IMG/VR virus record: IMGVR_UViG_2778261267_000001
DNA: 40,147 nucleotides
Reading direction: 5' to 3' (one strand)
DNA from: a virus
Lineage: Duplodnaviria > Heunggongvirae > Uroviricota > Caudoviricetes
Shown here: one piece after another, positions 2,796 to 30,095 of the stretch
How the letters are laid out: each line of letters opens with the position of its first letter
Numbering within the stretch: the stretch's first letter is position 1
Translations under genes and position numbers: made by a program
The notes under the pieces: generated by a model
Seen by the model: the letters and a program-made list of their open reading frames with translations, nothing else
Databases searched by the model: none
Told to the model about the DNA's origin: nothing

Positions 2796-3677
2796 TTACA
2801 TAGATGTTTCGTTTAATTCTTCCCGACGAACGCTGTAAACGTCGGTGGCTTTTGCCAGCAGTTCGTCATCATCTGAAAGTTTTTGTGCAATATATTTGTA
2901 AGCCTTATCCAGTTCGGAGATAGTGCTGTAATTCATCGCTGCGCTGGTAAAGGCCATCAGCATTTCTTCTGGATCACGGCTATCCGCTTTACGCGTTTGC
3001 TCATCAGGCTTTTTCACTGGTTTAGCGTTGATCAGACTGTTCATTCCCGCAGCAGTAGTTGTTTGCGGAGTAATGTCTCGCTCAACGCGCGGTGCCGTTT
3101 CCTGTAATTCGTCTGGGGTGTAAACACCGAGAAGTACATCAGGAGCGTGCAGGCGAGCCCATCGTTTCGTGCAAAGATAGGCAAGCTGCTGGCGCGGATC
3201 CTGTTCCCATAATGGAGAATTACGCACTCCGGCTTGCGCCATACTGATGGTAAGCTCACGGGGTTCTGCTTCTCCTTTAAGAATTGCTGACACAGTTACC
3301 GTCAGATTCGGTGATTTATCTGTTTTGCCGTTAACATTCGACCAGTCACCGCTCCAGCGATAATTCAGGCGTGTCGCCAGCAGGCTGGAAGAGGATACGA
3401 CCGCGTTTACCAACTGTGCTTCGTAGCCTAACGTTCCGTTTACCACATGCGTTTTCTGCGCCACGGCGAAAGGGTTCATTCCCCACTGTGCCGCCTGCAT
3501 GGTCACCGCCAGGCAATCGGCAGGTTTGCCTTCAAGATGTCTCGGTACAGTCGCTTTGCTTTGTGACATCAACTCAGCGAAACGCACCAGTTGATTCATG
3601 CCCTCGGGGCTGAAGATTGCCGCAGCAGTGCCTACAGTTGCGCCTGGTTGTGATGTGATTGCGATATCATTGCTCAT
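2796..3677 (-). CDS. RecT-like single-strand annealing protein
   Basis: 293-aa ORF directly downstream of and overlapping the exonuclease gene (classic RecE/RecT pairing). Family call is from sequence character and size, not from a search. Confidence 0.7.
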   Translation of the reverse strand: MSNDIAITSQPGATVGTAAAIFSPEGMNQLVRFAELMSQSKATVPRHLEGKPADCLAVTMQAAQWGMNPFAVAQKTHVVNGTLGYEAQLVNAVVSSSSLLATRLNYRWSGDWSNVNGKTDKSPNLTVTVSAILKGEAEPRELTISMAQAGVRNSPLWEQDPRQQLAYLCTKRWARLHAPDVLLGVYTPDELQETAPRVERDITPQTTTAAGMNSLINAKPVKKPDEQTRKADSRDPEEMLMAFTSAAMNYSTISELDKAYKYIAQKLSDDDELLAKATDVYSVRREELNETSM

Positions 3678-4495
3678 ACGTACATATCCTGTTTACGTGC
3701 CCAGTCAGGGCGTTTAATAATTTCCACTCCGCCCCACTCATCGTTGATGCGGCATTCGTGATAGGTATTCAGATCCCGGCGGAACAGAGCGTGCCCGGCA
3801 TCGACATCCGGCGCATCCAGCTCGAACACGCGTACCGGATAACGACCACAATCAATGCTTTCGCTCACGGCAAGAAAGAAAAAACCATGCGGCTGACCAG
3901 TAATCCTCATTGCGCCTTCGCGGTACATTGCGTCCTGCACGTGGTAGCGGAATTCCTCTATGTGGCGTGCAAAACGGTCCATATCTGCAACCTTTTTCAC
4001 GTCGACGATCACGTTGTGCTCGTTCAGCCATTTGTCTGGACGAATGCGGCACAACTCACCAGTCTCTTCATCGTTCCAGTACATTGATGCTTCGCAGTAA
4101 CCAGGTGCTTCCAGCATCCAGCGTGCCGCCGGGTGAGCCATTGCGCTATCACGCATCAGCTCCAGTTTCCGCCACTGCTCGGCATCAAGTACCGTAATCC
4201 CCATATCCGCCACATCACGAAGAAATGCCTCTTCGTCAGCTTTACCTTGTTTCGTCCGACGATCGAATTTCGGTGAAACAATGAAGCGTTTGTCGAACTC
4301 TCCAGGCTCCAGAAGCAGACAGTGCAATGCGGTTCCCATATCCAGTGCCGACTTTTTCTCTTCGTCTTCTGGTGCTGCCTGAACCCATTTAAGAAGCGCC
4401 GGATTCTTGGCAACCATGTCCAGTTGCGACTTACTCACGCCGTCACCGGCGTGGTAGTCTTTGTTGCTGATGTTGAAATAAATTCCCGGTTTCAT
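3674..4495 (-). CDS. RecE-C-terminal-like PD-(D/E)XK exonuclease (exodeoxyribonuclease VIII-like)
   Basis: 273-aa ORF with N-terminal YFNISNKDYHAG segment and a central D...E.K-type motif (IVDVKK), as in DUF3799/RecE-like phage exonucleases; paired with the RecT-like gene. Confidence 0.7.
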   Translation of the reverse strand: MKPGIYFNISNKDYHAGDGVSKSQLDMVAKNPALLKWVQAAPEDEEKKSALDMGTALHCLLLEPGEFDKRFIVSPKFDRRTKQGKADEEAFLRDVADMGITVLDAEQWRKLELMRDSAMAHPAARWMLEAPGYCEASMYWNDEETGELCRIRPDKWLNEHNVIVDVKKVADMDRFARHIEEFRYHVQDAMYREGAMRITGQPHGFFFLAVSESIDCGRYPVRVFELDAPDVDAGHALFRRDLNTYHECRINDEWGGVEIIKRPDWARKQDMYV

Positions 4496-4793: not shown

Positions 4794-4946
4794 TCAGCCC
4801 TCCCATATCTCGTTATCGTTGGCCACATCGCGAGCTTCTTTGCTGACGAAAGCCCACTTAATGCCTTCCTGTAAGGTGCGGAACTTCCAGCTCATGAATC
4901 CGCATGCAGTAACGCAGTACCAACCGTTGATGATTTTCCACTGCAT
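4794..4946 (-). CDS. Hypothetical 50-aa protein, first gene of the leftward early operon
   Basis: ORF below the track's size cut-off, read by hand (MQWKIINGWYCVTACGFMSWKF...). GAGG RBS about 10 nt upstream; immediately downstream of two operator-like palindromes. Confidence 0.4.
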   Translation of the reverse strand: MQWKIINGWYCVTACGFMSWKFRTLQEGIKWAFVSKEARDVANDNEIWEG

Positions 4947-4965
4947 AATTTGTTACCTCGGTCTG

Positions 4966-13359: not shown

Positions 13360-13956
13360 ATGATGCCTGCTGAACCTAAAACCTATAAACGCAAATCAAC
13401 GCAATTTAAGCCACTAACAGCAATGCAGGAGGCTTATTGCCAGTCATACATCAAAACGCCTGAAAACCAGACTCAGGCAGCGATTAACGCAGGATTCTCC
13501 CCAAATACAGCGGCAGTTAAAGCCAGTGTCATGATGCGCGATGAACGCATTCAAAAACGGATTGCCGAGTTGATGGAGGAGCGCAACAAACGAATGCGCG
13601 TCAGTGCTGATTACGTTCTCATGCGCCTGGTGGAGATCGACCAGATGGACGTGATCGACATCCTCAACGACGATGGGAGCCTTAAACCAATCCGTGAGTG
13701 GCCGAAAATCTGGCGCACTACGCTTAGCGGCTTTGATCTGTCATCGACCATCATGAACATGAACGAGGATTCGATAGAGACAATCCTCAAAAAAATTAAA
13801 TGGCCTGACAAGGTGAAGAACCTTGAGCTGATTGGTAAGCATGTTGATGTCAACGCGTTCAAAGAACGCCTGGATGTTAATGTGAATGTGACAATTGCTG
13901 ATCGCATAGCGGCAGCCAGGAAGAGACTGAAAGAACGTCAGGATGGCAATCAGTGA
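13360..13956 (+). CDS. Terminase small subunit
   Basis: 198 aa from the MMPAEPK start (RBS GGTGG); helix-rich small protein immediately upstream of and overlapping the large terminase. Confidence 0.7.
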   Translation: MMPAEPKTYKRKSTQFKPLTAMQEAYCQSYIKTPENQTQAAINAGFSPNTAAVKASVMMRDERIQKRIAELMEERNKRMRVSADYVLMRLVEIDQMDVIDILNDDGSLKPIREWPKIWRTTLSGFDLSSTIMNMNEDSIETILKKIKWPDKVKNLELIGKHVDVNAFKERLDVNVNVTIADRIAAARKRLKERQDGNQ

Positions 13957-15518: not shown

Positions 15519-15890
15519 TTATTGCTCGCTTAACTTCTGCTTCAGCAAGTAACCTTCAAGCATCCAGATTTTGTTTACGGCATTCTGTCTGGCAATCTTC
15601 CGACCAATTTCTGCATCAAAGTTTTCCGGGCTTGCACAGGCGCTATATCCGGTGACGGTGAAGCCGTTGCGCAGCACCAGGACGCAGAACGTCAGCAGAG
15701 AAAGTGATTCGTGCGGCTGGTAGTTTACCTCTCCGCCAGTATGTTTCGCTTTTATGGCTACGCCAAAGGCACCATCTTCTGCTGTGAAATATGCCTCCTG
15801 AGCAATAATGCTCTCGATATGGTCTGGCGTAACGCGCGGCGCGGCTAAACCTTTAGCCTGAATTTCAGATTCAATGTCTTTGTCACTCAT
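15519..15890 (-). CDS. Reverse-oriented moron protein (possibly Phage_gp49_66-family; uncharacterised)
   Basis: 123-aa ORF on the opposite strand to the late genes, with AAGGTGAG RBS and terminators on both sides. Family name is from memory of similar prophage proteins and is unverified. Confidence 0.55.
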   Translation of the reverse strand: MSDKDIESEIQAKGLAAPRVTPDHIESIIAQEAYFTAEDGAFGVAIKAKHTGGEVNYQPHESLSLLTFCVLVLRNGFTVTGYSACASPENFDAEIGRKIARQNAVNKIWMLEGYLLKQKLSEQ

Positions 15891-15905
15891 AGTCTAATCT
15901 CACCT

Positions 15906-15930
15906 TAAAAAAATGCCCGGCGAACCGGGC
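15906..15930 (-). terminator. Intrinsic terminator downstream of the tRNA gene (minus strand)
   Basis: GCCCGG-CGAA-CCGGGC hairpin followed on the minus strand by a run of seven T (plus-strand A-run at 15907-15913). Confidence 0.6.
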
Positions 15931-16093
15931 GAACTGGAAGCAATGAGTTATGCCTTCCGTGGTTGTACTGGTTTACAGCATGAAGTCATCGCAATGGCGT
16001 CCTGCTGTAAAAAGGGCGGTGATGGTTTACCTTGAAGGACTATCACCGCCAAGCCCCTGGAACTTCTGGCATCACGGTCCTTAGGCGTGATTC

Positions 16094-16170
16094 TGGCGTG
16101 GCATGCAGGATTCGAACCTGCGACCAACCGCTTAGAAGGCGGTTGCTCTGTCCAACTGAGCTAATGCCAC
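16094..16170 (-). tRNA. tRNA-Arg (anticodon UCU, decodes AGA)
   Basis: 77-nt cloverleaf folded by hand: acceptor GTGGCAT/ATGCCAC, D-stem GCTC/GAGC, anticodon stem ACCGC/GCGGT with loop CTTCTAA (anticodon TCT), T-arm GCAGG-TTCGAAT-CCTGC, discriminator G, encoded CCA. Confidence 0.85.
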
Positions 16171-16491
16171 AACGCTGAGAGCACTTAGCCTGTTAAGGCG
16201 CCACACTTTGTCGCGGCTCCATAAATGCTCTCATCGTTGTACCCTCGTCTCTTCCGAGGCGTCACACCGAATCGCCGGGATGGTGAATCCCCGTACGCGG
16301 AATAAAACCGCTCGACTTGCACATTCCGGCTACCTGGTTCGTTGCCCGAGCAAGGGAGGGTGCCCCTTAAACGTATCCAGACCGCTATCGGCGCATGTGC
16401 CATACGCCGTACTGCTCAAAATAAAAGCTCACTCCACCTGTTCAATTTAACGACAAGCCAGTCAGGTTAGTAACCGGAATGAACTCTTTGG

Positions 16492-16569
16492 TTACCCAAA
16501 AGGTAATAATTCGTGCGTTAAATGTCAACTACCTACGATAAATAAATCATATGTGGTTAAATTGGTAAT
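16492..16569 (+). promoter_or_regulatory. Candidate late promoter region: TTACC-N5-GGTAA palindrome plus TATGTGGTT-N5-GGTAAT element
   Basis: TTACCCAAAAGGTAA at 16492-16506; TATGTGGTT at 16550-16558 followed by GGTAAT at 16564-16569; about 30 bp upstream of the first virion-block gene. Confidence 0.55.
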
Positions 16570-16596
16570 AATTTAATTGCGTACGGAGTCATTGAT

Positions 16597-16803
16597 ATGT
16601 GCATGGGTAGCTCACCATCAGTGCCTGCAACACCAGAAGTTCAGGCAGCACCACAGGAGCAGGATGCCGCCGTTGTTGATGCCCGCGACGAAGAAACTCG
16701 TCGCCGTCGCGCTGCTGCTGGTCGTAGTTCTACGCTGCTTACCGGTTCTCAGGGCGACACATCAACCGCTAATACCAGCGGTAAAACGCTGCTTGGTCAG
16801 TAA
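16597..16803 (+). CDS. Hypothetical small Ser/Ala-rich protein (68 aa), first gene of the structural block
   Basis: ORF whose translation initiation region (CGGAGTCATTGA-N-ATG) is duplicated exactly in front of the portal gene. Confidence 0.5.
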   Translation: MCMGSSPSVPATPEVQAAPQEQDAAVVDARDEETRRRRAAAGRSSTLLTGSQGDTSTANTSGKTLLGQ

Positions 16804-22303: not shown

Positions 22304-24774
22304 TGGCTATCAGTTGGATCCAGCCCAGCTTTGCCGGTGGTGAGATTGGACCGTCGTTGTACGGACGTATCGACATGGCGAAGTACCAGGTGGCATTGCG
22401 CAAGTGCGATAACTTTATCGTGCGGCAGTATGGCGGCGTTGAGAATCGACCTGGTACGCGTTTTGTCGGTGCCGCCAAATACCCAAATCGGAAATGCCGC
22501 CTGATCCCGTTCCAGTTCTCGACGGTTCAGACTTATGCTCTGGAGTTCGGACACCAGTACATGCGTGTTATCAAAGATGGTGCGTTGGTGCTGAACAGCA
22601 GTAATGTTATTTATGAAATTGCCACGCCATATACTGAAGCCGATCTGTTCCTAATTAAATTCACGCAAAGCGCAGACGTGCTTACGCTGGTTCATCCGGC
22701 ATACCCGCCGAAAGAGTTGCGACGTTATGCGCATGACAACTGGCAACTGGTTGATGTGGTAACGAAGAACGGGCCATTTGAAGATATCAATATTGACGAG
22801 TCAGTGACGGTTTATGCCAGCGCCAGCACCGGGACAATTACGTTAACGGCAAGCGCCTCTATTTTTGGCGCGGAGCAGGTAGGCAAATTGTTCTATCTGG
22901 AACAGCCAGCAGTGGATTCAGTACCGGTATGGGAAACCAGTAAGAGTACGTCGATTGGCGATATTCGCCGTGCAGACAGTAACTACTATCGCGCCGTTAC
23001 AGCAGGCAAAACAGGTACTTTGCGCCCTTCGCATACAGAAGGCACATCATGGGATGGCTGGGGCGGATCCGGTGATGATGATACTGGCATTGAGTGGGAA
23101 TATCTGCACAGTGGTTTTGGCATTGCCCGTATCACTGCTGCAAATGGCACTACTGCAACTGCTGAGGTGATTTCCTATATCCCTTCGCAGGTCGTTGGCG
23201 AGGATAATGCCAGCTATAAATGGGCTAAATATGCCTGGAACAGTGTTAATGGTTATCCTGGCACTGTTGTTTATTATCAACAACGTCTTTACTTCGCCGC
23301 ATCGACTGCGTTCCCTCAGACTATCTGGGCCAGCCGTACTGGGGATTATAAGGATTTTGGCAAAAGCAATCCTACGCAGGATGACGACAGAATTATCTAC
23401 ACCTATGCCGGACGTCAGGTTAATGAGATCCGCCACCTGATTGATGTTGGTTCGCTGGTGGCGCTGACTTCCGGAGGTGAGTACGTCATTACCGGCGACC
23501 AGAACAAAGTATTAACCCCATCATCATTTGCATTCAGTTCTCAGGGATCAAATGGCTCAAGCAACGTCCCACCAATTGCCGTGGCGAATATTGCTCTGTT
23601 CGTCCAGGAGAAAGGCAGTGTTGTCCGTGATCTGGCCTACTCATTCGATGTTGACGGCTATCAGGGGAACGACCTGACCATCCTTGCCAATCATCTTTTT
23701 CAGAAGCACAGCATTGTTGACTGGTGCTTCTCTATTGTCCCTTACTCCAGCGCCTTCTGCATTCGTGATGACGGTAAATTACTGGTGATGACCTATTTGC
23801 GTGATCAGCAGGTTTTTGCATGGGCACCACAATCCAGTACCGGAAAATATGAAAGCACATGCAGTATCAGCGAAGGCAATGAAGATGCGGTGTATTTCGT
23901 CGTTAACCGAACCGTTAACGGGCAAACAGTGAGATACATCGAGCGGCTGTCCAGCCGTTTATTTACCAGCGATGAAGACGCTTTCTTTGTTGATTCTGGC
24001 CTTAGCTATGATGGAAGAAATACGTCTGACAGAACGATGACAATCACTGGTGGTTCTGGCGAATGGGATTACCGCGCGGAATATACAATCAGTATTTCTG
24101 GCGGTGCGTACTTCACCAGTAGTGATGTCGGTGCGCAACTACAGTTCCCTTATACCGGAACTGATCCTGATACTGGCGATGAAGTGTCAAAAGAATTACG
24201 TTGCGACATTATTTCTGTAACCAGCAACACCGCTGTAGTGGTTCGTGCTAACAGGAACGTCCCGCCATCCCTCAGGAATGTGGCCACCACGAACTGGCAG
24301 ATGGCGCGCCGGGCATTTGGCGGCTTGTCTCATCTTGAAGGTCAGACCGTAAACATCCTCTCTGATGCGAACGTGGAACCACAGAAAGTAGTTTCCGGAG
24401 GTGCCGTCACGCTGGAATCACCGGGGGCTGTAGTGCACATCGGCCTGCCAATAACTGCTGAATTCGAAACACTGGATATCAACATTAACGGACAGGAAAC
24501 GCTGCTGGACAAAAAACAGGTGATCCCATCCGTTACTCTGGTTGTGAATGCCAGCCGCGGCATCTGGGCGACTACGCCCGGCGGTAAATGGTACGAATAT
24601 CCACAGCGTGAATTCGAGTTCTACGATGATCCTGTTGATGACGCTACCGGAAAAGTAGAAGTGAAACTGGACAGTAACTGGGGCAAAAACGGACGTGTAA
24701 GAATCCGTCAGCTTGACCCGTTGCCGCTGTCTGTTCTTGCCGTTATTCCTCGCCTTACTGTTGGGGGATTCTGA
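22303..24774 (+). CDS. Tail tubular protein B-like / nozzle (T7 gp12 position) - putative
   Basis: 823-aa ORF (T7 gp12 is about 800 aa) following the gp11-like gene with an overlapping start. Confidence 0.45.
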   Translation: MAISWIQPSFAGGEIGPSLYGRIDMAKYQVALRKCDNFIVRQYGGVENRPGTRFVGAAKYPNRKCRLIPFQFSTVQTYALEFGHQYMRVIKDGALVLNSSNVIYEIATPYTEADLFLIKFTQSADVLTLVHPAYPPKELRRYAHDNWQLVDVVTKNGPFEDINIDESVTVYASASTGTITLTASASIFGAEQVGKLFYLEQPAVDSVPVWETSKSTSIGDIRRADSNYYRAVTAGKTGTLRPSHTEGTSWDGWGGSGDDDTGIEWEYLHSGFGIARITAANGTTATAEVISYIPSQVVGEDNASYKWAKYAWNSVNGYPGTVVYYQQRLYFAASTAFPQTIWASRTGDYKDFGKSNPTQDDDRIIYTYAGRQVNEIRHLIDVGSLVALTSGGEYVITGDQNKVLTPSSFAFSSQGSNGSSNVPPIAVANIALFVQEKGSVVRDLAYSFDVDGYQGNDLTILANHLFQKHSIVDWCFSIVPYSSAFCIRDDGKLLVMTYLRDQQVFAWAPQSSTGKYESTCSISEGNEDAVYFVVNRTVNGQTVRYIERLSSRLFTSDEDAFFVDSGLSYDGRNTSDRTMTITGGSGEWDYRAEYTISISGGAYFTSSDVGAQLQFPYTGTDPDTGDEVSKELRCDIISVTSNTAVVVRANRNVPPSLRNVATTNWQMARRAFGGLSHLEGQTVNILSDANVEPQKVVSGGAVTLESPGAVVHIGLPITAEFETLDININGQETLLDKKQVIPSVTLVVNASRGIWATTPGGKWYEYPQREFEFYDDPVDDATGKVEVKLDSNWGKNGRVRIRQLDPLPLSVLAVIPRLTVGGF

Positions 24775-25238
24775 TGATCGATGTTCGAATTGTTCCCGCT
24801 ACCGAAGAGCATCTTCAGATGATTTTGCCGGATGTTCGTCAGGCTGATATTGACGAACTGTATGCGGTATCGCTGATGACTACCGAAGATGCGCTGCGTG
24901 TTGGTCTTCGCACTGCGACTATGGCCTGGTCAGGATTTGCGAACGGAGAACTGGTAACCATGTTTGGCGTATCTCCGGCGTCAATGATCGGTGGCAATGG
25001 TACGCCCTGGCTGGTAGGAACCAGCCGTATTGAAAAATATCAGAAGACATTTCTTCGCCACTGCCGCCCTGTATTGCAGCAGATGCTGGCAGTTTATCCA
25101 CGCCTGGAAAACTACGTCGACGAGCGAAACCATGTTGCCAAAGCATGGCTGCACTGGCTTGGATTCAGGCTTGAAGAAGCCGCGCCTTATGGTGCTCTTG
25201 GTCTTAATTTCCACAGATTTCACATGGAGAGAAAATAA
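24774..25238 (+). CDS. Hypothetical virion-assembly protein (T7 gp13 position)
   Basis: 154-aa ORF with overlapping start; function by position only. Confidence 0.4.
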   Translation: MIDVRIVPATEEHLQMILPDVRQADIDELYAVSLMTTEDALRVGLRTATMAWSGFANGELVTMFGVSPASMIGGNGTPWLVGTSRIEKYQKTFLRHCRPVLQQMLAVYPRLENYVDERNHVAKAWLHWLGFRLEEAAPYGALGLNFHRFHMERK

Positions 25239-25783
25239 TGTGCGATCCGGTTATTGCTGGTGGCGCAATGCTCGCCATGAGTGGCATTCAGGCATACACC
25301 CAGTACCAACAGGGAAAGTATGCCTCGAAGGTTGCAGAAGCGAACGCAGATATAGCCACAGCTCAGGCAAATGATGCAATAAACAGAGGTAACGCTGAAG
25401 CTGAGCAACGGCGCAGAGAGACCCGACAGCGGCTTGGTACACAGGCGGCGACAATGGGGGCGACCGGCGCCGATTTATCTACCGGTAACGCGCTGGATAT
25501 ATTTGGCGACACTGCCCAGTTTGGCGCTCTTGATTCGCTGACGACGGTGAATAACGCGCAACGCGAGGCTTACGGTTATCAGGTTCAGGCTGCCAACTAT
25601 AAAGCAGAAGCCAGTTCAGCCCGTAAACAGGGGAATGTGGGAGCAGCAACAACATTGCTCACTGCGCCTCTGAAGGCATACGGTGCGTACCAGATGTTTG
25701 GTGGGACGTGGAGTCCGTTTACTCAAAGCACCCCTGCGCCAATCGGGGCAGCAGCAGGAACCAGATTACCCGGAGGATTATAA
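25238..25783 (+). CDS. Internal virion protein (T7 gp14 position) - putative
   Basis: 181-aa Ala/Gln-rich protein with a hydrophobic N-terminus; position. Confidence 0.45.
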   Translation: MCDPVIAGGAMLAMSGIQAYTQYQQGKYASKVAEANADIATAQANDAINRGNAEAEQRRRETRQRLGTQAATMGATGADLSTGNALDIFGDTAQFGALDSLTTVNNAQREAYGYQVQAANYKAEASSARKQGNVGAATTLLTAPLKAYGAYQMFGGTWSPFTQSTPAPIGAAAGTRLPGGL

Positions 25784-28296
25784 TGCCAGTCGTACCAACA
25801 GTATCCGGACGTCAGGTTGAGAGTCGTGGAGTTCAGTCAGCAGGCTTGCAGACGTTTTCTCAGCCAGGTATTAGTGATGCTTTTGTTCGGGCAGGGACAG
25901 AGGCAATTGATGTTTTGGGGCAGGCAAAACAGCGTGCCAATATCGCTCTGGCTCAGGAGGCATCTCTTAACCTCAGTCAGATAAGCAGTGATCTGCTGAA
26001 TAACCCTGAAACAGGTTTGCTTAACCTGAAAGGGAAAAATGCTATTGGAAAAGGTCAGGAGTATACGCAGCAGTTTGATGCTCAGGTCGAACAACTGGCT
26101 ATGTCGCTGCCGGATGAACAGGCCCGTAATGCTTTCATGCAGCAGGCGCAGCAGCAGCGCATTCAGTTCACTACGCAGGCCGGGCGGCACGAGATAGGGC
26201 AAATAAATGCCTACGAAGAAGGCCAGTTTCAGGCTACGCTGCTGAACAATGGTAAAAATGCCGCAGCATTGTATGGCGACAACGCCGCATACGTATTGGC
26301 TAATAAGCAAACTTTCCAGCAAATTGAGGATTACGGCATTGCGCATGGCTGGAGCGACGAGCAAATCCAGGCCAAGAAAATCGAGTTTAAAGAGAAGGTT
26401 GCTGATGCAGCATTGTCCCAGTGGTCGGCAAACAATGCGACCGCATTCATCCAAAGTAATGGCGAGTTAAGTGATACTGCTGCTGGAGCTCGCCGTGCTG
26501 TAGCAGATAGTGACTCTTCCGAGCGTGCCCGTGGCATACGCAACAATAACCCAGGAAATCTCGAATACAGCAAAACCAATCCGTGGGTAGGCCAGACCGG
26601 TGATGATGGTCGATTTGCTAAATTCGAAACACCTGAACACGGGATTCGTGCATTAGGGCGGAACCTGATGTCGTATCAGAGGCAGGGTATTGATACCGTC
26701 AGCGAGATAATTAATCGCTGGGCACCGCCTACTGATAAAAATGACACTATGTCGTATATCAAAGCAGTGTGCGAACAACTTGGCGTTTCTGCTGATGAGC
26801 CTCTCGATGCATCTAATCCTGATACCCTGAAGGCGCTTTGTGCAGCCATTATCCATCATGAGAACGGTAGCCAGCCATACAGTGATCAGCAGTTAACTGC
26901 TGGTGTCAGTGCAGCACTTGGTTTATCAACAATTCCAACCAACACCAAACGCTATACCGGTAATGCAGCATTCGATGCGGCATCTCCTGAGGCGCAGGCA
27001 AGTTTTATGCGACAGGCGGATCAACTGCGTCGGCAGCAGCAGGCTGAATATAAAACGATGATTGACAGCCAGGTTCGCGATGCGACAGCTGCGTATATGC
27101 GTGGCGTTGAATTTCCTAACCCACCTGGTGAGGCTGATTTTATTGCAGCTTATGGAGTCAGAGAAGGAAACCTGCGATATACCGAGTTCAGAAATACGCA
27201 AATCGCCGGACAGTATATAGGCTCTTTCCGCAACATGCCGACAAGCAGCATTACAGCATATGTTGAGCAATTACGCCCGGATACTGGTGAGACAGGGGAG
27301 GGTTATGCGGCACGAGCCGCTCTTTATGACAACGTTGTGTCGACTGCAAGTCAGGTGATAAAGCAGCGACAGGCTGATCCTGTACAGTTCTCTCTTGCCG
27401 CCGGACAGGCAAAGCCTATCGACATGAGCAATAAGGATAACTTTGGACAGAGCGTTGCCTTGCGTGCTGCTCAGGTCAGTGACCTTGCTAAGTCATATGG
27501 CACTCCACTGACGTTCTTTTCCAAAGACGAGGCCAATCAGATCGGTGTTTTCTTTCGTGATGCGCCCGTTTCCCAACAGGCAGCATATCTCGATACCATC
27601 AGGCAGAGCACTGGTGGTGGGCAGGTGTATATGTCAGCACTACAGCAGATCAGTGCCAACGCTCCATCTGCTGCCGTTGCCGGGATACTGATGGATAAGC
27701 CAGGTGGTATTTTGGCAGAAAAAAACTGGTTTAATCCGGATGTTTCCGTGTCTCCTGAAACCGCTGCGCAGACAATTCTTGCTGGCGCGGCGGCTCGTAA
27801 AGGTACTGATGACGCGAAAGGTATTCCGATGCCTAAAGATGCTGATCTTCGCCTTGAGTTTTCTGACATGGTGAAGGATGCATTTGCTGGTGATGCTCAG
27901 GGGGCATCAATGGCATACGAGATCGCAAAGGACTATTACGCTGGTGTGATGGCGAAAAAAGGCGTGGTATCAGGCGAAATTGACAATGATATCTGGAAAC
28001 AGGCTGTTAACGTAGCTACAGGTGGCGTGCATGACTATAACGGAATGGGGAATGTTCTTTTGCCGTGGGGAATGTCTGCAGAGCAATTCGATAAGCAGGT
28101 TAATCAGGCTTGGAATGAACAAGTTGTTGGCACAGGGATAAAAACACCGCCTGGTCAGTATGGTTTGCAAAGTTACGGCGATAGTCAGTACCTGGTGAAA
28201 CTTGGTACTGGTTATCTGCTAAAAGATGATGGTTCTCCCGTTGTTCTTGATCTGACACAGAAGCGTCAGAGATTCTCCGGAGATATTCCGCAATGA
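25783..28296 (+). CDS. Internal virion/ejection protein (T7 gp15 position) with an embedded globular domain
   Basis: 837 aa from the ATG at 25783, which overlaps the upstream stop; the track's start at 25708 is an extension. Contains a conserved-looking block around RGIRNNNPGNLEYSKTNPWVGQ...IINRWAPP. Confidence 0.55.
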   Translation: MPVVPTVSGRQVESRGVQSAGLQTFSQPGISDAFVRAGTEAIDVLGQAKQRANIALAQEASLNLSQISSDLLNNPETGLLNLKGKNAIGKGQEYTQQFDAQVEQLAMSLPDEQARNAFMQQAQQQRIQFTTQAGRHEIGQINAYEEGQFQATLLNNGKNAAALYGDNAAYVLANKQTFQQIEDYGIAHGWSDEQIQAKKIEFKEKVADAALSQWSANNATAFIQSNGELSDTAAGARRAVADSDSSERARGIRNNNPGNLEYSKTNPWVGQTGDDGRFAKFETPEHGIRALGRNLMSYQRQGIDTVSEIINRWAPPTDKNDTMSYIKAVCEQLGVSADEPLDASNPDTLKALCAAIIHHENGSQPYSDQQLTAGVSAALGLSTIPTNTKRYTGNAAFDAASPEAQASFMRQADQLRRQQQAEYKTMIDSQVRDATAAYMRGVEFPNPPGEADFIAAYGVREGNLRYTEFRNTQIAGQYIGSFRNMPTSSITAYVEQLRPDTGETGEGYAARAALYDNVVSTASQVIKQRQADPVQFSLAAGQAKPIDMSNKDNFGQSVALRAAQVSDLAKSYGTPLTFFSKDEANQIGVFFRDAPVSQQAAYLDTIRQSTGGGQVYMSALQQISANAPSAAVAGILMDKPGGILAEKNWFNPDVSVSPETAAQTILAGAAARKGTDDAKGIPMPKDADLRLEFSDMVKDAFAGDAQGASMAYEIAKDYYAGVMAKKGVVSGEIDNDIWKQAVNVATGGVHDYNGMGNVLLPWGMSAEQFDKQVNQAWNEQVVGTGIKTPPGQYGLQSYGDSQYLVKLGTGYLLKDDGSPVVLDLTQKRQRFSGDIPQ

Positions 28297-30095
28297 GTTA
28301 CTTTGGCCTTAATCCAGTAAACCAGAATCAGCAGCTTGACGAAGCAGCATCAAATCCAGCTGGCTTTAACAGCGATGTTGGTTTTTTCGACAATGCTGTA
28401 GGAGCGGCATTGTCTGGTTTGTACTCCGGGCTGGTGGCAAAGCCAGATCAGTTGCTCTGGGCAGGGATGGATAAAATCGTATCCCCGATTGCTCAGTTTG
28501 TTAACGAAAACACCTCGCTCAATGACACTTCAATTTCATACATTGCCGAGCAGAGAAAACTAGCAGAGCAGCAGGTTAAGCGGCTGACGCCTGATGCCGC
28601 GACAACCGGAACCGCCGGGCAGGTTCTTTATGGGTTGTTCGATATGGGCGGGCAGGCTGTTGTCGGTACAACGCTCGGTGGTCCTGTCGGAGGTGCAGCG
28701 GCGGTAACTTCGCTACAGGGTTTTTCTGAGTTTGAACGGCTGACAGCACAGGGTGTTGATTTCAGGACGGCGCAGGAAGCGGGATTAGTGCAGGGCATTA
28801 CTGCTGGTGCCGGAACACTGATCCCTATGAGCCTCGGGTTACGTGCTGGTGGTGCGCTGGCGGAAGGTGTGGCGGCTCAGCTTGCGCGGACGGGTGAGAG
28901 TTCAGTGCGACGCGCCGCAGCAACAGCAGTACGTGCAACGCCAGATATTGCCTATGCCGCAGGTACAAATATTGCGTTCGGTATGGCACAGCGTGGGCTT
29001 ACTGCAAAAACGCTTCGTGATGGTGGCTATAGCGAAATGGCTAACCAGTATGATGTGTTGGATCGACAGGCAATTGCTATTGATGCTGTTCTTGGGGTGG
29101 CGTTTGGTGGTGTCGGCAGATTTATTAACTCTCGCGGCGAGTCTACAAACGCACCAAATTTTTCACCAGTTGATATCGATGCTGCACTGGCGGCGAATGC
29201 CGCTCATCATGCTGAAATTGATATTGCGCCCGGCGTGCCGATCAACGTGCTTTCGCGCAATTCTCACATTCAGGCTCTGCGAAAAGCTATGTCTGATGTT
29301 AGCCAGGGGAGACCTGTAGACGTTGCCAGCATTGTTGAGTCTGCATCTTTCAGTGAAATTCCTGGGCGCAAGAGTCTGCTGTCTCAGGCAGTTAATGAGG
29401 CTCTGTCATCTGTAGATGATGGAGTAACGGCGCGCGCTATAGAAAATCGGTTGCTTGAAGAACAGGCCGCGCAGCTTTTGCCGCGTGGCGATAGACAGGT
29501 TTACCAGTCTGAAATCGCTAATAGCCAACGAATTATTGAAAATCTCACTGAACAGCGGGCACAAATTCTTGCAGAAGAGCCAACCGGTAGCGGTAAAGCT
29601 TTGTCTCGTGCTAGATCAGATAAACAGGCCAGACTTCGCGATATTGATCAACGAATCCGGCAGGCACAAGAACGCCTGGAATTTTCCCGTAACGCGTTGG
29701 CACCGCACGAGCCTGGCGGTCAGTTTTTTGAAGCTCGAGCAGAACTGGCTCGGAGACAGCAGGCAGAAAGTGAACTTAATGCTCAGGCTGTTTCATTCTA
29801 TAAAACAGCAGAGGTCAGGACGCCAGACGAAGTAGCTCCTTTTGAGCCTGGTAAAATATTGCAACAGGCAGAACAAAAAATGATGGCGGATCAGGCGGGA
29901 GGTATTGATCTTCGCATAGCTGAAGACTCGCTGCTTGAATCACCTGACATGATAATCACCGTGCTGGATGATGATGGTAATCCACAATCGCGCAGCGCGC
30001 GCGAAGTACTGGATGAAGCGAACAGGGAAAGTGAGCAGGCAATACAGGATTCCAGCCTGTTTGATGTTGCTGTGGCGTGTTTCTTGAGAGGTTAA
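28293..30095 (+). CDS. Internal virion/ejection protein (600 aa)
   Basis: Large Ala/Gly-rich ORF with overlapping start, located in the ejection-protein block. Confidence 0.55.
   Translation: MSYFGLNPVNQNQQLDEAASNPAGFNSDVGFFDNAVGAALSGLYSGLVAKPDQLLWAGMDKIVSPIAQFVNENTSLNDTSISYIAEQRKLAEQQVKRLTPDAATTGTAGQVLYGLFDMGGQAVVGTTLGGPVGGAAAVTSLQGFSEFERLTAQGVDFRTAQEAGLVQGITAGAGTLIPMSLGLRAGGALAEGVAAQLARTGESSVRRAAATAVRATPDIAYAAGTNIAFGMAQRGLTAKTLRDGGYSEMANQYDVLDRQAIAIDAVLGVAFGGVGRFINSRGESTNAPNFSPVDIDAALAANAAHHAEIDIAPGVPINVLSRNSHIQALRKAMSDVSQGRPVDVASIVESASFSEIPGRKSLLSQAVNEALSSVDDGVTARAIENRLLEEQAAQLLPRGDRQVYQSEIANSQRIIENLTEQRAQILAEEPTGSGKALSRARSDKQARLRDIDQRIRQAQERLEFSRNALAPHEPGGQFFEARAELARRQQAESELNAQAVSFYKTAEVRTPDEVAPFEPGKILQQAEQKMMADQAGGIDLRIAEDSLLESPDMIITVLDDDGNPQSRSAREVLDEANRESEQAIQDSSLFDVAVACFLRG

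Follow-up and report, generated by a model that had tools for sequence, protein, structure and literature searches.

Here we report that a 40,147-nucleotide stretch of viral DNA (IMG/VR record IMGVR_UViG_2778261267_000001; Duplodnaviria; Heunggongvirae; Uroviricota; Caudoviricetes), which we refer to as the window and which is a phiV10/epsilon15-type (Uetakevirus) prophage, carries in its interval 16171-16491 a member of a widespread, unannotated class of structured RNAs in temperate enterobacterial phages. Comparative sequence analysis makes us highly confident that what the interval encodes, on its minus strand, is a self-contained module of structured RNA, in which a pseudoknotted core of ~184 nucleotides (nt) is followed by a hairpin, P6, giving a full module of ~245 nt. 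The core is the unit in common with lambdoid, P1-type and other enterobacterial phages, and its structure is well supported; its transcription and function we infer. The RNA probably acts in the control of early phage transcription or in the capture of a host factor.

The structure is carried by covariation. We aligned 31 representatives of at most 93% identity with MAFFT (alignment A2), derived the structure manually (helices H1, P2, H4 and H5 together with two pseudoknots) and built a covariance model, R1, from the nested helices and the homologues. A second, model-aligned set (A4) holds 76 cores, 73 of them distinct, and includes a second sequence type recovered with an independent pattern. 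In A2, 97.1% of cells pair and 11 pairs show compensatory changes, compared to about 26-47% pairing when the partners are slid by 1-3 columns, and across the 73 distinct sequences of A4 the figures are 97.0% and 14 pairs, with slid controls at or below 42%. Compensatory changes above controls are what is generally expected of a structured functional RNA, and they answer the covariation analysis proposed in the first-pass annotation of this DNA, which had named a structured regulatory RNA as one option for the interval; that option is supported here in the form of a conserved, covarying and pseudoknotted minus-strand RNA. R1 finds the window in a single, full-length match of 148.5 bits (E 2.9e-43). 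Because fold z-scores fail to separate the strands (-2.25 vs -2.53), we set the strand from G-U pairs instead: more than 200 cells hold a G-U pair that would be an A-C mismatch on the opposite strand, which identifies the minus strand as the functional one, and adjacent tRNAs are always co-oriented with the element. Taken together, the 14 compensatory pairs and the strand-specific G-U pairs argue for selection on a folded minus-strand nucleic acid. An alternative fold proposed by RNAalifold, in which the H1 strands pair with the joining strand described below, was set aside since it is the local H1 hairpin that has the covariation.

The borders given in the first-pass annotation, a tRNA 5' end on one side and an operator on the other, are both correct: position 16171 is the first base upstream of a tRNA-Arg(UCU) gene (16094-16170, minus strand), and 16491 is the last base of the 17-base-pair (bp) operator ATTACCTTTTGGGTAAC (16507-16491). 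The two mutually overlapping open reading frames (ORFs) that it had dismissed are indeed present, one on the minus strand (16185-16403, 72 amino acids) and one on the plus strand (16208-16450, 80 amino acids), and neither is conserved among homologues. No open frame is kept across all homologues, 7 of the 31 representatives lack one altogether, the lengths of the elements differ by amounts that are not multiples of 3, and in tblastn the plus-strand ORF matches P1 in pieces spread over three frames. We therefore rejected a protein-coding gene, for which a conserved frame with frame-preserving indels was looked for and not found. The description of the interval as GC-rich and unlike its flanks holds in part. 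At 53.6% GC it is mildly enriched relative to the window mean of 48.7% (standard deviation 5.1; 88th percentile of 321-nt windows) and differs from the adjoining promoter/operator region (35% GC), but not from the tRNA (57%), and terL (54.5%) is as GC-rich as the interval. Two further suggestions can be discarded. There is no tRNA promoter inside the interval, as the promoter-like element that is conserved overlaps the operator, immediately beyond the interval, and there is no decayed second tRNA, as ARAGORN calls a single tRNA and the Rfam tRNA model finds nothing else at E up to 10. A tRNA remnant was likewise rejected because the element's own architecture is conserved in contexts without any tRNA.

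The core (16231-16414, minus strand), delimited by the covariance model and pair counts, comprises five helices, H1, P2a/P2, P3, H4 and H5, and the pseudoknot PK2. It opens with H1 (16389-16409), an 8-bp hairpin formed by CGGCGUAU and AUGCGCCG with an almost invariant GGCAC loop, in which 98% of cells are paired and three pairs show compensatory changes, GC/AU at columns 10:22 (43 vs 29 sequences), CG/UA at 9:23 and GC/CG at 8:24. P2a and P2 (16327-16384) follow, a helix in which 16384-16377 pairs with 16337-16333 and 16329-16327 round a branched insert whose length and sequence vary between lineages; here the 76-sequence set shows CG/UA exchanges at 36:92 (45 vs 24 sequences) and GC/AU exchanges at 37:91 and 32:100. 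The near-invariant joining strand GGUAGCCGGAAUGUGCAAG (16316-16334) is unchanged in all 31 representatives, and its CCGGAAUGUGCAAG portion is retained in the type-2 variants. Within it, GUGC (16322-16319) could pair with GCAC of the H1 loop (16400-16397) to form a second, candidate pseudoknot, PK1; these bases are invariant, show no covariation and are broken in three single sequences, which leaves PK1 unproven. P3 (16295-16313), a small hairpin closed by GCGG/CCGC in the window according to the sub-domain fold, varies in sequence and length and is replaced by hairpins of other sequence in other lineages; we left it out of the formal pair counts because the alignment is poor there. H4 (16291-16288 with 16280-16277) and its PK2 partner occupy 16265-16291, with compensatory changes in three of its four pairs, and its loop CACC (16285-16282) pairs with GGUG (16268-16265) to form PK2, of which pair 151:171 is CG in 66 sequences, AU in 7 and never broken. 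The last core helix, H5 (16243-16259, CCUCG-GAAGAGA-CGAGG), carries the conserved loop GGAAGAG and has compensatory changes in three of five pairs (UA/CG, CG/GC and CG/GC), with 98.6% of cells paired. Between the variable hairpins, the blocks UGGCACAUG, AGCGGUC, GGUAGCCGGAAUGUGCAAG, CACCA, GGCG, GGUGUGAC and GGAAGAG are invariant among the 31 representatives.

Downstream of the core, P6 (16169-16240) is an inverted repeat that forms a stem of 17-19 bp (CAACGAUGAGAGCAUU.../...AGUGCUCUCAGCGUUG) with a conserved A-G/A-A purine mismatch and, in the window, a variable 34-nt insert; its sub-domain fold has a free energy of -37.4 kcal/mol. The stem is conserved with some covariation, and the insert ranges from 53 to 110 nt among homologues. 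No spacer separates the 3' strand of P6 from the start of the tRNA, whose first bases it enters directly, and P6 ends exactly at the RNase P site of the tRNA. Most versions of the element carry P6 downstream of H5, and P1 is without it. The 9-mer GGAAGAG(A/T)C, which includes the H5 loop, occurs at window positions 13919, 16247, 17180, 26512 and 38818, five times against 0.68 expected, a count reached by 1 of 100 shuffles. We considered the extra GGAAGAGAC/GGAAGAGTC copies as H5-like sites and dropped them, since only the H5 copy lies in a hairpin loop.

The first-pass annotation had taken lack of conservation across related prophages as grounds for abandoning the interval; conservation in fact extends to unrelated phage types. 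Over 15900-16620 the window shares 97.5% identity with phiV10 and with hundreds of prophages in E. coli. Beyond this phage group, BLAST with the interval finds unrelated phages at 70-83% identity over sharply bounded stretches of 160-240 nt, with the shared element starting at 16410 on its 5' side and ending at 16249 or 16171 on its 3' side. The lambdoid carriers are mEp460, cdtI, 2H10 and Stx2c- and Stx2a-converting phages, the P1-type carriers are P1, P7, D6, SJ46 and 579 mostly P1-like plasmids, and there are further carriers among Klebsiella, Enterobacter and Salmonella phages. A 196-nt query matched 1850 of 5426 complete E. coli genomes (about a third), with up to four copies per genome, and single genomes of Kosakonia, Citrobacter, Klebsiella, Phytobacter, Kluyvera, Buttiauxella, Erwinia dacicola and others also contain the element; two pattern scans of IMG/VR added more than 150 further loci. 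The core of Stenotrophomonas phage vB_SmeS_BUCT708 (locus L164, 2504-2666) is nearly identical to that of the enterobacterial viral contig L033 type (154 bits), which points to a recent transfer across orders or to a doubtful host assignment.

Among the records listed, none bears an RNA annotation on the element: it is either unannotated, covered by a hypothetical-protein ORF or, in epsilon15, marked as an 'RNaseIII' site. Two annotated coding sequences lie over it, mEp460_037 (L001/L129, 31040-31408) on the strand opposite to the RNA and Tyrion gp54 (L131, 2850-3011) on the same strand, and both calls are probably spurious products of a stop-poor, GC-rich RNA gene. We did not find a description of the element in the searchable literature; subscription-journal papers, including the P1 genome paper, lay outside our reach, and a prior mention is possible.

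In the window, the element would be transcribed from a minus-strand promoter that we place at 16491-16528, with a -35 box TTGACA (16528-16523), a 17-bp spacer and a -10 box TACCTT (16505-16500). This putative promoter overlaps the operator ATTACCTTTTGGGTAAC, which is homologous to the repressor site annotated in epsilon15 (ATTACCTTTTAGGTAAT); it is conserved in six divergent relatives and was not flagged by a consensus scan. A direct repeat, GGTAATAATT, lies at 16502-16511 and 16564-16573, and the block TTAAATTATTACCAATTTAACCACATATG is invariant in the same number of divergent relatives; taken together, the elements at 16491-16573 resemble a divergent promoter region under repressor control that serves both the structural operon and the RNA/tRNA unit. 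Since the promoter lies outside the interval, 16415-16491 would be transcribed as a 5' leader of ~80 nt, starting at about 16493 and reaching to the core (16415-16493), as judged from an alignment of Uetakevirus-type upstream regions. The leader is specific to the lineage and represents what is left of a P6-like hairpin that Tyrion and epsilon15 show. Leader positions 16481-16470 (CAUUCCGGUUAC) are complementary over 12 nt, with one G-U pair, to 16333-16322 (GUAGCCGGAAUG) in the invariant joining strand, in the window lineage only; this could be an alternative pairing or a coincidence with the operator-like GGTTAC.

On its 3' side the element is directly followed, with no spacer, by tRNA-Arg(UCU), which is called by ARAGORN and by Rfam (73.3 bits), and divergent core variants show the same junction. 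RNase P cleavage at the tRNA 5' end would therefore create the 3' end of the element. Two intrinsic terminators on the minus strand come next: T1, with a stem at 16050-16015 and a U-tract at 16014-16009, was recognized as an inverted repeat, by folding and in a separate scan, and T2, with a stem at 15930-15915 and a U-tract to 15907, was found in a terminator scan. T2 lies directly before the ribosome-binding site of a PF13876 gene (15890-15519; N4 gp49/Sf6 gp66 family in Pfam). As there is no recognizable promoter after T1 or T2, this gene depends on read-through.

In other carriers the element always lies in sense orientation inside repressor-controlled early operons and is usually promoter-proximal, with intrinsic terminators downstream of it in most cases. 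Where a tRNA adjoins, either tRNA-Arg(UCU) follows at 0 nt or tRNA-Ile2 ends 14 nt before the element. The lambdoid contexts are without a tRNA and run in the order cI, terminator, PL (near-consensus TTGACA-16-CATAAT), ~45 nt, core, P6 and small hairpins, followed by an intrinsic terminator, a second P6-like hairpin and the first gene, which is yfdP-like. This spacing of the core ~45 nt past PL is found in cdtI, mEp460 and Stx2c/Stx2a phages, with no promoter between the core and the first gene. The lambdoid carriers have a Q gene and no annotated N gene, and SfV-type phages have been reported to be without N, cII and cIII (PMC3851460). In P1, where the operon is the C1-controlled ban operon, trnI and ban flank the core. 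An upstream ORF of 14 codons (L004, ~2900-2985, minus strand) lies in the stretch from the core to ban; it has a Shine-Dalgarno sequence to itself and a stop codon that overlaps the start of ban (TAATG), an arrangement suggestive of a leader peptide to which ban is translationally coupled.

Related leaders contain several further modules. Downstream of the core, they have an RprA-like module, consisting of AUUGCUGUGUGUAGUCUUGGC and a terminator hairpin, that scores 49.7 bits (E 4.7e-5) with the Rfam RprA model, for which the gathering score is 70; it occurs at L033 7558-7677, in SfV (L219 ~1995-2065) and in many IMG/VR leaders (such as L011, L095 and L108), and could be a phage-borne RprA-like small RNA (sRNA) that ends at the early-leader terminator. 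T1 of the window is homologous to the terminator of this module and is without the RprA-like seed. In tRNA-less leaders, a conserved tail after P6, GUUGUGGUG, is complementary to a downstream CACCACAAC (cdtI L002 ~2500-2380; L011, L019, L028 and L095; SfV L219 1870-1990), and the pairing would close a multi-hairpin domain where the window has its tRNA-Arg (GUGGCAU...AUGCCAC). This domain could be tRNA-like or tRNA-derived; ARAGORN and Rfam make no call on it. Extra H5-like (GAC-CCNGG-GAAAGAC-CNGG) and P6-like (CACAAC...GUUGUG) hairpins also surround the core and follow terminators in leaders L033, L067, L164, L010, L055 and L065, which suggests repeated binding or processing sites along long untranslated leaders.

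How the RNA works is a matter of weighing several readings. The one that we favor, at a probability of roughly one in three, is that the core is a cis-acting, put-like RNA for processive antitermination, or an anti-Rho RNA. According to this model, transcription would start from the operator-controlled promoter at 16528-16500, and the module would form the 5' part of an RNA that runs through leader, core, P6, tRNA-Arg(UCU), T1, T2 and the PF13876 gene. The folded core would then act in cis on the elongation complex that made it, binding RNA polymerase, or the host elongation or Rho-related factors recruited to the enzyme, to confer resistance to termination, so that the early operon is read through downstream terminators and long untranslated stretches. 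The almost invariant unpaired segments UGGCACAUG, AGCGG, CCGGAAUGUGCAAG, CACCA, GGCG, GGUGUGAC and GGAAGAG would form the surface contacted by a host machine that is conserved in the Enterobacteriaceae. Cleavage by RNase P at the 5' end of the tRNA would set the element free, which need not stop it from acting; put RNA modifies RNA polymerase on its own and continues to act when untethered from its transcript (PMC9378689). In our survey of 61 non-redundant contexts, a same-strand terminator lies at +150 to +850 nt in 42, compared to 17 of 61 control intervals taken upstream or further downstream. We saw no protein common to the window phage, mEp460 and P1, of which only part of the genome was searched, and this argues for a host partner.

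Several observations weigh against antitermination in cis. The enrichment of terminators may belong to the separate sRNA-like module. The P1 core is ~2.3 kb away from the promoter and comes immediately behind trnI, with no obvious terminator ahead of ban. SfV and ST64B have no core despite the same PL and yfdP-yfdQ early-left operon as core carriers, and the SfV leader also has the same RprA-like terminator. In epsilon15 the 3' two-thirds of the core are lost while T2 is kept; the remnant (L005, 1443-1539), which is overlapped by the annotated 'RNaseIII' site, retains only H1 and the 5' side of P2 and is fused to the T1 U-tract by a deletion that has taken away all other parts of the core together with the T1 stem, the tRNA and P6. 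The absence of the core from SfV and ST64B and its truncation in epsilon15 indicate that it is accessory and not needed for read-through. Moreover, viral contig L021 has two full-length cores on the same strand ~800 nt apart (3988-4157 and 4795-4962), an arrangement with no obvious use for a cis element. A second, diverged copy within one phage genome, comparable to putR, was not found with filters off (one copy per genome), nor was the element seen in any rightward operon.

The same accessory pattern fits a stable, processed RNA that acts in trans, binding or sequestering a conserved host protein as a decoy and thereby delivering, upon infection or induction, a first strike that is independent of translation. 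The early leader would then be a cluster of RNA genes (core, P6, tRNA or tRNA-like domain, and sRNA-like terminator module), from which tRNA-processing enzymes would excise the core, on the 3' side through RNase P in the window and on the 5' side through trnI 3' processing in P1, with RNase III perhaps cutting at P6. The module is sharply bounded and passes between unrelated phages at ~80% identity, abuts tRNAs at 0 nt (tRNA-Arg, 3') or 14 nt (tRNA-Ile, 5') and always on the same strand, is dispensable (SfV and ST64B without it, epsilon15 with a truncated copy), is duplicated in tandem in one contig, and has leader neighbors that resemble trans-acting RNAs, as the 49.7-bit RprA-like match illustrates. 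There are precedents in the C4 RNAs of P1 and P7 and the CI RNA of P4, which are processed from operon leaders by RNase P, and in T4, which encodes stable RNAs in its tRNA cluster. However, the element has no promoter and terminator of its own, genes always follow it on the same transcript, and its complementarity to E. coli 16S, 23S and 5S rRNA and rrnH tRNAs is not significant, the longest match of 9 nt equaling the shuffle median. We regard this reading as tentative, and the accessory pattern, the exact abutment to tRNA processing sites and the RprA-like module make it almost as likely as antitermination. A simpler role as a 5' structural cap or processing scaffold, shielding downstream RNA from RNase E decay or Rho loading or aiding tRNA maturation, would suit an element that lies at or near the transcript 5' end in most contexts, that processing of trnI in P1 would leave at the 5' end of the ban mRNA and that belongs to long, untranslated and densely structured leaders. 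A simple hairpin would suffice for this purpose, though, and the lambdoid contexts offer no tRNA to mature. Furthermore, about 60 unpaired or junction nucleotides are near-invariant over the 73 distinct sequences, which points to specific recognition, and we therefore consider a cap improbable.

The conserved pseudoknotted core, its invariant junction nucleotides and its position in a 5' leader upstream of terminators would also suit a riboswitch-like sensor, in which the core would be an aptamer and its ligand, a metabolite or signal, would set how far the early operon is read through. Yet no expression platform overlaps the core, the nearest terminator being 150-500 nt away behind other modules or the tRNA; the downstream cargo is heterogeneous and Rfam gives no match, and such a sensor appears very unlikely to us. 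We give as little credence to a DNA-level or functionless element, be it a recombination 'linker', a single-strand DNA signal, a plain promoter, a decayed tRNA or a small protein gene. The element does sit at mosaic boundaries between phage modules, and ORFs are annotated over it in mEp460 and Tyrion, but the 14 compensatory pairs and strand-specific G-U pairs, the lack of conserved frames, the absence of any tRNA signal and the location of the promoter outside the conserved module all speak against it.

If the RNA is real, a pseudoknotted RNA of 170-250 nt has been overlooked in such thoroughly studied systems as P1, Stx-converting phages and prophages of uropathogenic and ST131 E. coli. Should it be an antiterminator, it would explain how N-less lambdoid phages read through early terminators and would be a second, structurally distinct RNA that reprograms RNA polymerase; should it be a decoy, it would be an RNA-based factor of host takeover or counter-defence. 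Either way, PK2 and the invariant junction strands present a defined, mutable target, spurious ORF annotations can be corrected, and the element can serve as a marker for widespread early-leader RNA modules. The broader proposal joins these strands: a new phage-borne class of structured RNA, either an RNA-only antiterminator with a non-put fold or a host-factor decoy that needs no translation and is the very first product of early transcription. This class would have been exchanged horizontally between temperate phages of Enterobacteriaceae of podo-, sipho- and myovirus type, P1 and the Stx phages among them, and is found in about one third of sequenced E. coli. We judge the odds of this combined proposal to fall just short of even.

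Comparison with known RNAs supports treating the element as distinct. The Rfam/Infernal scan that the first-pass annotation had also proposed, run with Rfam 15, found no family overlapping 16171-16493, neither at the gathering score nor, over 15850-16650, with E values of up to 10 allowed, the only match being the tRNA, and on two divergent homologous leaders it gave no match to the element and the sub-threshold RprA-like match outside it. T4 species 1 and 2, stable RNAs of a phage tRNA cluster, and the large, phage-associated orphan RNAs GOLLD and ROOL, frequent neighbors of tRNAs, are highly structured RNAs of unknown function that are co-transcribed and co-oriented with phage tRNAs. The element has no sequence or Rfam similarity to any of these, belongs to temperate phages of Enterobacteriaceae, also occurs without tRNAs and is much smaller than GOLLD or ROOL. 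C4 RNA, of ~77 nt, acts by pairing to repeats in its own operon. Like the P1/P7 C4 and P4 CI RNAs, the element is presumably a phage RNA of an early-operon leader that is released by RNase P, and P1 carries both; in contrast to C4, it has no Rfam C4 match, and the only complementarity of that kind is the 12-nt leader match confined to the window lineage. The nut sites of lambda (boxA and boxB, used with N and Nus factors) share the position of the element in the PL leader; in some variants the 3' strand of P6 looks like boxA (UGCUCUUU), and in lambdoid leaders it is followed by small hairpins. We nevertheless rejected a nut/boxA reading of P6, since the boxA-like stretch is part of a stem, covaries accordingly and shows no conservation of boxA as such, the window having UGCUCUCAG. 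Moreover, nut sites have no counterpart to the conserved 184-nt core, and carriers of the element have no annotated N gene.

The closest parallel is put (putL and putR of HK022), to which the element, on the favored reading, would be functionally analogous through a larger and unrelated fold. Like put, the element is a structured RNA that would emerge just past an early repressor-controlled promoter, in N-less lambdoid phages and with terminators downstream, and it thus occupies the position characteristic of put RNAs: on the early transcript, upstream of terminators, in a phage without N. The put RNAs need no phage protein partner (PMC9378689), and HK639 is annotated with a 'putL-like antiterminator RNA'. 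They are, however, ~70 nt long, with two stem-loops and a small triplex, and are present in two copies per genome, whereas the element, for which antitermination is only predicted, has ~184 nt (245 with P6), five helices and a pseudoknot and occurs once per genome; unlike put, it is also found in podoviruses and P1-type phage-plasmids and next to tRNAs. R1 has no match in the complete HK639 genome, including its putL-like RNA, or in HK022 23000-30000, a segment that may exclude the put sites and from which the core motif is also absent. From the model search and the architecture we rejected membership of the put family by sequence or structure, no direct comparison with the ten known put sequences having been made. 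A put-type activity, as opposed to a put-type fold, would show itself as terminator read-through for which both the RNA and the zinc-binding domain of the beta-prime subunit of RNA polymerase are required.

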